DNA from: Escherichia coli
GTDB taxonomy: Bacteria > Pseudomonadota > Gammaproteobacteria > Enterobacterales > Enterobacteriaceae
Assembly: GCF_003334315.1 (NCBI RefSeq)
Contig: NZ_QOWR01000128.1
Reading direction: 5' to 3' (one strand)
Length of the DNA stretch: 887 bases
Shown here: positions 1 to 887 of the stretch, one piece after another
Position numbering within the stretch: the stretch's first letter is position 1
Layout: each line of letters begins with the position of its first letter
Notes under the pieces: generated by a model
What the model was told of the DNA's origin: nothing
Database searches by the model: none
Seen by the model: only the letters and a program-made list of their open reading frames with translations
Program-made: the position numbers and the translations under genes

Positions 1-887
1 CCCTCAGCATGTGGCCGGATAACCGTATCGCCCGTGACGCGCACTATCTTTACCGGTATGACCGTCACGGCAGGCTGACAGAGAAAACCGACCTCATCCC
101 GGAAGGGGTTATCCGCACGGATGATGAGCGGACTCACCGGTACCATTACGACAGTCAGCACCGGCTGGTGCACTACACGCGGACACAATATGAAGAGCCG
201 CTGGTCGAAAGTCGCTATCTTTACGACCCGCTGGGCCGCAGGGTGGCAAAACGGGTATGGCGGCGTGAACGGGACCTGACGGGCTGGATGTCGCTGTCAC
301 GGAAACCGCAAGTGACCTGGTACGGCTGGGACGGCGACCGGCTGACCACAATACAGAACGACAGAACCCGCATCCAGACGATTTATCAGCCGGGGAGCTT
401 CACGCCACTCATCAGAGTTGAAACCGCCACCGGTGAGCTGGCGAAAACGCAGCGCCGCAGCCTGGCGGATACCCTTCAGCAGTCCGGCGGCGAAGACGGT
501 GGCAGTGTGGTGTTCCCGCCGGTGCTGGTGCAGATGCTCGACCGGCTGGAAAGTGAAATCCTGGCTGACCGGGTGAGTGAGGAAAGCCGCCGCTGGCTGG
601 CATCGTGCGGCCTGACGGTGGAGCAGATGCAAAACCAGATGGACCCGGTGTACACGCCGGCGCGAAAAATCCACCTGTACCACTGCGACCATCGCGGCCT
701 GCCGCTGGCGCTTGTCAGCACGGAAGGGGCAACAGAATGGTGCGCAGAATACGATGAATGGGGCAACCTGCTGAATGAAGAGAACCCGCATCAGCTGCAG
801 CAGCTTATCCGCCTGCCGGGGCAGCAGTATGATGAGGAGTCCGGCCTGTATTACAACCGCCACCGCTATTATGACCCGCTGCAGGGG
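1..887 (+). CDS. rhs: Rhs-family (YD-repeat) core protein, internal fragment from the C-terminal part of the conserved core; partial at both ends (codon phase begins at base 3)
   Basis: Manual translation of frame 3 gives 295 codons with no stop: [295 protein letters not shown]. Frames 1 and 2 hit stops within the first 80 bases (tga at 76..78, taa at 20..22). Recurrent YxYDxxGRL-type YD repeats and the terminal [15 protein letters not shown] segment are hallmarks of Rhs core proteins. The paralog (rhsA/B/C/D-like) cannot be assigned from this conserved core, so the symbol is family-level only. Confidence 0.93.
51..83 (+). other. YD-repeat unit (protein-level motif) [11 protein letters not shown]
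   Basis: Codons 17-27 of frame 3 read [11 protein letters not shown], a near-perfect match to the Rhs/YD consensus YxYDxxGRL(T/I). Confidence 0.8.
141..176 (+). other. YD-repeat unit (protein-level motif) [12 protein letters not shown]
   Basis: Codons 47-58 read [12 protein letters not shown]; YxYD followed by a basic residue and Leu, a degenerate YD repeat. Confidence 0.7.
216..251 (+). other. YD-repeat unit (protein-level motif) [12 protein letters not shown]
   Basis: Codons 72-83 read [12 protein letters not shown]; YxYDxxGR core of the YD repeat. Confidence 0.75.
318..353 (+). other. YD-repeat unit (protein-level motif, degenerate) [12 protein letters not shown]
   Basis: Codons 106-117 read [12 protein letters not shown]; aromatic-x-aromatic-D-x-x-R-L-T pattern with W in place of Y. 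Confidence 0.6.
678..716 (+). other. YD-repeat unit (protein-level motif, degenerate) [13 protein letters not shown]
   Basis: Codons 226-238 read [13 protein letters not shown]; a YxxDxxG(L) variant of the repeat. Confidence 0.55.
747..773 (+). other. YD-repeat unit (protein-level motif, degenerate) EYDEWGNLL
   Basis: Codons 249-257 read E-Y-D-E-W-G-N-L-L; YDxxGxL core. Confidence 0.55.
828..887 (+). other. N-terminal part of the Rhs repeat-associated core domain ([20 protein letters not shown]), truncated by the window end
   Basis: Codons 276-295 read [20 protein letters not shown]. The G-L-Y-Y-x-x-x-R-Y-Y-D-P-x-x-G segment is the conserved opening of the domain that, in Rhs and TcC-type proteins, continues into the DPxGL motif and the autoproteolytic site separating core from variable tip. 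The rest of the domain is beyond base 887. Confidence 0.8.

Follow-up and report, generated by a model that had tools for sequence, protein, structure and literature searches.

The 887-nt stretch of Escherichia coli DNA analysed here (hereafter the window) very probably represents the 3'-terminal part of the conserved core in an E. coli rhs gene of clade I, and we have good confidence that it covers the last repeats of the Rhs shell together with the first half of the C-terminal plug/autoprotease domain. A variable tip at the C-terminus and an immunity gene almost certainly lie just downstream of the window, and this pair is likely to be the YbfO-type tip with YbfC, since all four E. coli chromosomes matching the window at 100% carry it and ybfO of E. 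coli K-12 shows no difference from the window over its 3' 471 bases. The identity of the tip cannot be deduced from the window by itself: copies of the window with one mismatch precede different tips, and the assignment is therefore probable rather than certain. Sequence 3' of base 887 lies outside the window and was read from the four exact-match genomes, against a comparison set of 5,426 complete E. coli genomes. An earlier interpretation made from the letters of the window (hereafter the sequence-only reading) had anticipated a nearby core/tip boundary followed by a variable tip and a small immunity gene, and is supported overall, with corrections to the extent of the core domain and to the boundary motif.

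A single stop-free frame spans window positions 3-887 on the plus strand and yields a 295-aa translation, which matches the NCBIfam profile NF041261 'RHS element core protein' over profile positions 935-1229 of 1261 (E 1.1e-188). The window is 100% identical to positions 8001-8887 of one exact-match genome (L001; L001 coordinate = window coordinate + 8000), where it falls within a coding sequence annotated as 'RHS element core protein' (L001:5243-9442, WP_240992365.1) and encodes residues 921-1215 of a 1399-aa protein. The window fragment scores 629.6 bits on NF041261, and the full-length exact-match protein scores 2638.8 bits over residues 1-1247, exceeding the curated equivalog cut-off of 2000 bits. 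The full-length protein is made up of a short N-terminal segment, a DUF6531 plug (residues 46-123), a YD-repeat shell, the Rhs_assc_core domain and the tip. The shell is matched by TIGR01643 in six stretches of the full protein (E 4.9e-41), with a weak match in the window itself, and PF05593 repeats are present within the N-terminal 500 aa.

Towards the 3' end of the window, a PF03527 'RHS protein' segment occupies positions 669-779 (L001:8669-8779, plus strand; i-Evalue 8.2e-15, residues 23-59 of L001:8603-9439), and the C-terminal plug/aspartyl autoprotease domain, TIGR03696 'Rhs_assc_core', begins at about nt 750. The N-terminal 42 of the 76 profile positions match residues 250-294 of the window translation (window 750-887, plus strand) with 37.8 bits, against a curated cut-off of 32.5 bits; in the full protein the match covers residues 1170-1247 and reaches 80.5 bits. 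The sequence-only reading had taken the last 20 codons of the window (828-887, plus strand; residues 1196-1215) as the start of this domain. Their translation is identical to the one given then and they do lie inside TIGR03696, but they correspond to about profile positions 27-42, that is, to mid-domain, and encode the last YD-type hairpin before the aspartate motifs of the autoprotease.

The core/tip boundary

We defined the core/tip boundary as the point at which eight junctions stop aligning: those of K-12 RhsA, RhsB, RhsC and RhsD, of the orphans yibJ, ylbH and ybfO, and of the exact-match protein. The eight are alignable through (F/L)Y.Y.LNP, four variable residues and D(P/S)xGL, and are unrelated afterwards. 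In the exact-match genomes the window is followed by RYITQ, a first aspartate motif, DPIGL (codons 6-10 past base 887; L001:8903-8917, window-equivalent 903-917, plus strand; D1221), a 17-aa spacer, a second aspartate motif, DSMGL (codons 28-32; L001:8969-8983, window-equivalent 969-983, plus strand; D1243), and an alanine. Homology among the paralogues is lost only beyond the second motif, which places the end of the core 32 codons downstream of the window, after L1247 and directly before A1248, which is also the predicted cleavage site. The distance falls within the 10-40 codons that had been anticipated for a DPxGL boundary, but the motif at the boundary is DSMGL, and the DPIGL nearer to the window is the first of the two aspartate motifs. 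The frame neither continues as a long YD-repeat core nor ends without a tip, closing 184 codons past the window, and the expected drop in GC content is present, from 0.62 in the core to 0.43 in the tip and 0.37 in ybfC.

The first motif is canonical, and the boundary motif keeps the Pxxxx, Asp, Gly and Leu of the PxxxxDPxG[LWF] consensus but has Ser in place of Pro. At the second motif, relatives of the YbfO-type tip family read DPMGL, DSLGL, DALGL and DPKGL, so the proline of the boundary motif is not fixed in this tip lineage. Apart from DPIGL at residue 1221, the 1399-aa protein contains no DPxG[LWF]; searching strictly for DPxGL would therefore set the boundary 22 residues off, and pipelines in which Rhs proteins are divided in silico at DPxG[LWF] (as in bioRxiv 10.1101/2024.02.26.582050) would mis-define the YbfO-type toxin by the same length.

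The core end follows the pattern DPIG-x18-DSMGL, with D1221 and D1243 22 residues apart, and this spacing agrees with that of published Rhs autoproteases. Rhs1 of P. laumondii has two motifs 17 residues apart, with the catalytic Asp in the second and the toxin beginning at the following Ala (PMC8636562); in RhsA of P. protegens, D1324 and D1346 are 22 residues apart and both are required (PMC8765631); and the enterobacterial signature has been given as DPXG-X18-DPXG (PMC10684867). By analogy with Rhs structures and mutants already published, an aspartyl autoprotease dyad would be formed by D1221 and D1243, the chain would be cut after L1247, and the YD shell would enclose the 16.9-kDa tip (A1248-K1399) up to its delivery into a neighbouring cell. 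Cleavage at this position is predicted from the match in spacing, and in the Ala that follows the motif, to Rhs proteins whose mutants abolish cleavage.

The exact-match protein resembles, in its YD shell, its C-terminal aspartyl-protease plug, its two aspartate motifs 17-18 residues apart and its putative cleavage after the second, three structurally characterised Rhs effectors of type VI secretion systems (T6SS), Tse5 of P. aeruginosa (PMC10684867), RhsA of P. protegens (PMC8765631) and Rhs1 of P. laumondii (PMC8636562). With Tse5 (PMC10684867) it also shares the DUF6531 N-terminal plug, the short N-terminal segment before that plug and the lack of a PAAR domain. It differs from these effectors in reading DSMGL rather than DPxG[LWF] at the second motif, and in having neither a vgrG nor an eag chaperone gene adjacent to it.

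The rhsC locus and the origin of the window

Sequences 95-100% identical to the window occur in rhs genes of 3,889 of the 5,426 complete genomes, the median copy number being five. The four exact matches all lie at the rhsC locus, in the order kdp operon-ybfA-rhs-ybfC and with the same downstream sequence, and in all four the rhs gene is full-length (1399 aa). The corresponding locus of K-12 reads rhsC-ybfB-ybfO(pseudogene)-ybfC. The exact-match strains have in common with the K-12 rhsC locus (Jackson et al., 2009; PMC2935791) the chromosomal site (kdp-ybfA ... ybfC-ybfQ-ybfD-ybgA), a core that is 98-99% identical, and the same ybfO/ybfC tip and immunity candidate; unlike K-12, which keeps this tip as a silent orphan, they join the YbfO-type tip to a full-length gene and lack the K-12 RhsC tip and ybfB. 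From about position 7937 onward, L001 is 99.7% identical to K-12 ybfO-ybfC, and the upstream part is 96.8% identical to K-12 rhsC. Because of this switch in identity, we interpret the exact-match gene as a fusion of a main core with the ybfO tip, the window being the homology tract shared by the two. The window-equivalent in K-12 (L005:7213-8099) lies wholly inside the orphan core fragment, in which homology to the main core starts about 64 nt upstream of window base 1.

Comparison of the loci suggests that homologous recombination may convert the fused arrangement and the rhsC-ybfB-ybfO-ybfC arrangement of K-12 into one another, acting through the near-identical stretch of core to which the window corresponds. 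The route would be either activation of the orphan by deletion or displacement by an incoming tip, and the comparison does not distinguish the direction. A tip displacement model has been put forward (PMC2935791), and activation of an orphan by recombination has been shown experimentally in Salmonella (PMC3967940). In the rhs-main/rhs-CT-orphan system of Salmonella Typhimurium (Koskiniemi et al., 2014; PMC3967940), as at the K-12 locus, a full-length rhs gene is accompanied by a downstream orphan with a near-identical core segment of several hundred bp, and recombination fuses the orphan tip to the delivery-competent gene; the window would be the equivalent recombination substrate. The two cases differ in that recombination is proposed here from a comparison of strains, and in that the toxins and immunity proteins are unrelated. 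As a homology tract for tip swapping or orphan activation, a conserved core segment of this kind cannot predict which toxin a strain deploys. The Rhs architecture and the locus are already known, and the window adds little to them beyond a textbook feature.

Single-nucleotide differences within the window form a mosaic. All 10 differences between the window and K-12 ybfO fall in positions 80-416, and six of them are common to K-12 rhsC; positions 417-887 are identical to ybfO and differ from rhsC at 12 sites. In these alignments, the pattern resembles that expected of gene conversion between rhs copies within the window.

The tip and ybfC form a module that is present, 98-100% conserved, in 3,509 of the 5,426 complete E. 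coli genomes (~65%). Among 36 evenly spread genomes with the module, the rhs gene is annotated as partial ('RHS repeat-associated core domain-containing protein') in about two thirds and as full-length ('RHS element core protein') in about one third, the latter including O157-type strains. It is conceivable, if rather unlikely, that the window derives from a silent K-12-type ybfO orphan located downstream of a complete rhsC-ybfB pair, with the same tip and ybfC following. The tip would then have neither start codon nor delivery domain and would not be deployed, and ybfC would be useful only as immunity against neighbours, an outcome to which we give the same low weight. The location of the K-12 window-equivalent inside the orphan core fragment is compatible with this origin, as are the prevalence of partial annotations in the sampled genomes and the presence of such an orphan, with one mismatch to the window, in strain H6; however, the four 100% matches are all full-length fusions, and K-12 ybfO differs from the window at 10 positions.

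An origin in an rhsA- or rhsB-type paralogue is considerably less probable. In that case an already classified tip would follow, either the RhsA tip (annotated as 'polymorphic toxin type 34') and yibA, or the tip of RhsB and yhhH. Overall identity to K-12 places the window slightly closer to rhsA (99.1%) than to the ybfO orphan fragment (98.9%), followed by rhsB (98.3%) and rhsC (98.0%), and two further results speak against a YbfO-type assignment: the last 138 nt of the window, including the 60 bases of its last 20 codons, are 100% identical to both K-12 rhsA and K-12 ybfO, and copies of the window with one mismatch are found not only in the ybfO-type orphan of strain H6 (same tip, ybfC) but also in rhsB of QL57EC (RhsB tip, yhhH) and in rhsA of EC50 (RhsA tip, yibA). 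Set against this, no exact match occurs at the rhsA or rhsB loci among the 5,426 genomes, all four lying at the rhsC locus with a YbfO tip, and across the 3' 471 bases of the window, which are identical in K-12 ybfO, K-12 rhsA differs at 7 positions. We therefore retain the YbfO-type tip with YbfC as the likely downstream pair.

The YbfO-type tip

The tip of the exact-match protein comprises 152 aa (L001:8984-9439, plus strand, with the stop codon at 9440-9442; A1248-K1399), in line with the 100-200 aa predicted for a variable tip by the sequence-only reading. It is the tip carried by the silent ybfO orphan fragment of K-12, here joined to a full-length rhs gene. It has a pI of 9.1, 13% Pro and three Cys, and no hydrophobic segment (maximum Kyte-Doolittle 19-residue window 0.14). 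Pfam returned no match for the tip even at E 10, and none for 16 family members; NCBIfam searches of the tip found nothing past 22 core-derived residues, and comparison of the tip profile with PDB sequences gave only spurious MAP-kinase matches (E at least 0.58).

A profile search of 1.84 billion representative proteins recovered only 27 tip relatives. Eight of the distant relatives examined retain the N-terminal part, and every one of them immediately follows the end of an Rhs core. Eleven columns (S58, P59, Y62, C66, W69, D94, P107, G109, C112, A130 and D134) are invariant among sequences that are 33-42% identical, and a third cysteine, C76, is kept in at least 90% of tip-family sequences, giving the family conserved Ser, Asp, Tyr and Trp residues together with three conserved Cys. 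A terminal Arg-Lys/Arg dipeptide is likewise kept in at least 90% of the family; it corresponds to the last two tip codons (L001:9434-9439), and in a 16-sequence alignment of the family (A4) nearly all members end in Arg-Lys or Arg-Arg after a predicted amphipathic helix. Distant members of the family also occur as orphans in multi-tip arrays (L013:1535-6981 and L016:1-4301).

The suggestion that anything new at this locus would lie downstream of the window holds insofar as neither the tip nor YbfC has a Pfam, NCBIfam or PDB match; as to novelty, the tip turns out to belong to the ybfO/ybfC module of K-12, found in about 65% of complete E. coli genomes. Few Rhs tip/immunity pairs are as widespread in E. 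coli as this module, which has no assigned family, structure or activity. We tentatively propose that the YbfO-type tip may found an undescribed family of periplasm-acting, Rhs-borne toxins; its fold or chemistry would be new, and YbfC, exported and Ig-like, would be the protein that neutralises it. If true, a periplasmic family of this kind would be directly testable, the module being present in K-12 as well as in some 65% of E. coli genomes.

YbfC and the proposed site of toxin action

The small immunity gene expected after the tip has a candidate in ybfC, which encodes 189 aa (L001:9439-10008, plus strand) and overlaps the rhs stop codon by 4 nt (ATGA). YbfC has no Pfam, NCBIfam or PDB match; all homologues have a signal peptide, and the predicted model is an Ig-like beta-sandwich. 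A transcriptome paper lists ybfC as a 'putative secreted protein' (PMC6033998). On three unrelated contigs, tip homologues with 33-42% identity are each followed by an overlapping gene for a 188-194-aa YbfC homologue with a signal-like N-terminus (hhalign probabilities 99.9, 99.3 and 91.6%), and an open reading frame (ORF) that follows a different tip in L016 is unrelated to YbfC. Such co-variation of tip and YbfC is the pattern that a cognate toxin/immunity pair should show, and YbfC is, on these sequence comparisons, the candidate cognate immunity protein of the tip. The L016 array just mentioned has its YbfO-type orphan after a 1643-aa DUF6531-Rhs protein, and it is the 188-aa ORF downstream of that protein's own tip which bears no relation to YbfC. 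We also considered whether YbfC is a lipoprotein, by virtue of an invariant Cys21, and rejected this as a general rule: the E. coli protein has Asp at position -1 (IADC), and two of the three distant homologues (L016 and L017) lack the Cys but keep a signal-peptidase-I-like A-x-A site.

On balance we favour the periplasm as the compartment in which the toxin acts, because the immunity protein is exported and soluble and the toxin is non-hydrophobic and contains Cys. The tip would act on an envelope component in the periplasm of the target cell, and exported YbfC would neutralise it by binding. Periplasm-acting T6SS effector/immunity pairs are known, among them Tae/Tai, Tge/Tgi and Tle/Tli. Like the immunity proteins of these pairs, YbfC carries a signal peptide at its N-terminus, and its gene comes immediately after that of the toxin; unlike the toxins, the tip is carried in an Rhs shell and shows no sequence or motif link to them, lacking both GxSxG and a conserved His of the kind expected in a Cys-His hydrolase. 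More generally, no catalytic motif and no Pfam or NCBIfam match to the known periplasmic T6SS families (amidase, muramidase, lipase) was found in the tip. The C-terminal toxin of Tse5 differs from the tip as well, being a pore-forming, inner-membrane-targeting toxin, whereas the immunity protein here is exported and soluble. In a survey of 5,541 Rhs effectors, the predicted site of action was almost exclusively intracellular/cytoplasmic (bioRxiv 10.1101/2024.02.26.582050), so that an exported immunity protein, pointing to a periplasmic target, is unusual for Rhs cargo. A study of RhsF/RhsFI in enterohaemorrhagic E. coli (EHEC) was set aside as not concerning the ybfO/ybfC module: it deals with a different locus and a nuclease-like tip.

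Functional status and delivery of the putative toxin

Several observations weigh against the interpretation of the exact-match gene as encoding a delivered, self-cleaving YbfO-type toxin with YbfC as its immunity protein. Toxic activity of the tip is assumed from its context. The AlphaFold2 model of the tip, built on a 9-sequence alignment, is unusable (pLDDT 42.5, pTM 0.24), the tip-family alignment contains no conserved His and no known catalytic motif, and a literature search found no published experiment on ybfO/ybfC. Ser replaces the canonical Pro in the second aspartate motif, and cleavage of the DSMGL variant is proposed by analogy. In one exact-match genome (strain HCP30S3_I2) ybfC is frameshifted and the toxin gene is intact. 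The locus context, finally, does not establish a delivery route: the full-length protein has no significant PAAR domain (best match PAAR_motif, E 0.24, residues 2-20), no vgrG adjoins the rhsC locus in the four exact-match genomes, where the neighbours are ybfA and the kdp operon, and K-12 is not known to have a T6SS.

Taken to their extreme, these points would make the YbfO-type tip a decayed or non-toxic remnant and YbfC an unrelated secreted protein, with nothing functional downstream, but this is the least probable of the alternatives: although neither a family nor a motif nor a confident fold was found for the tip, K-12 carries ybfO as a pseudogene, one strain combines a frameshifted ybfC with an intact toxin gene and experimental literature was not found, 11 columns including two Cys are invariant at 33-42% identity with a third Cys kept in at least 90% of sequences, the pairing of tip and YbfC with overlapping stop and start codons is maintained in distant lineages, and conservation of the module at 98-100% in about 65% of E. 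coli genomes, O157-type full-length fusions among them, fits selection and not decay.

The frameshift in HCP30S3_I2 (L004:9439-10009) is caused by a 1-nt insertion at L001-equivalent position 9624, which changes GGTGAGTAT to GGTGATGTAT and does not lie in a homopolymer; this is a mistake of the assembly or else a strain retaining the toxin without its immunity gene. In L013, one distant orphan array of the tip family is followed by a gene resembling vgrG (Gp5_C) and by one for DUF2169. At the N-terminus of the exact-match protein, residues 2-20 (SGKPAARQGDMTQYGGSIV; within L001:5243-5400) give the sub-threshold match to the last PAAR motif repeat (E 0.24). Directly before the DUF6531 plug, H47-P48 occupies the position of the N-terminal cleavage sites of Tse5 (between K47 and P48) and RhsA (between H304 and P305), and the PVxxxxGE motif reads PVNPLLGA.

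Other features of the window and its surroundings

A stretch of about 85 residues encoded at window positions ~400-660 shows no YD-repeat pattern by eye and no match to a YD-repeat profile. The E. coli-specific model NF041261 does cover this stretch, which may have been inserted into the shell. Homology supports none of the remaining ORFs of the window, all of which are short or antisense. The antisense ORF at positions 297-863 (minus strand, 188 aa, GTG start) was rejected as probably an artefact of the GC-rich coding strand, the plus-strand frame having overwhelming homology support. Rfam, searched with the window on either strand, returned nothing beyond a chance match (E 0.21). An internal-promoter search across L001:7900-10300 for expression of the tip and immunity gene found six sigma-70-like sites, against 3.7 +/- 2.3 expected, which is not above chance.

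Downstream of ybfC, L001:10234-12639 contains repeated remnants of ISAs1/H-repeat transposases (ybfQ, ybfL-like and ybfD). They are arranged in blocks of about 380 and 886 nt that are ~94% identical, and two of the four exact-match genomes (L001 and L003) hold one copy more than the other two (L002 and L004).

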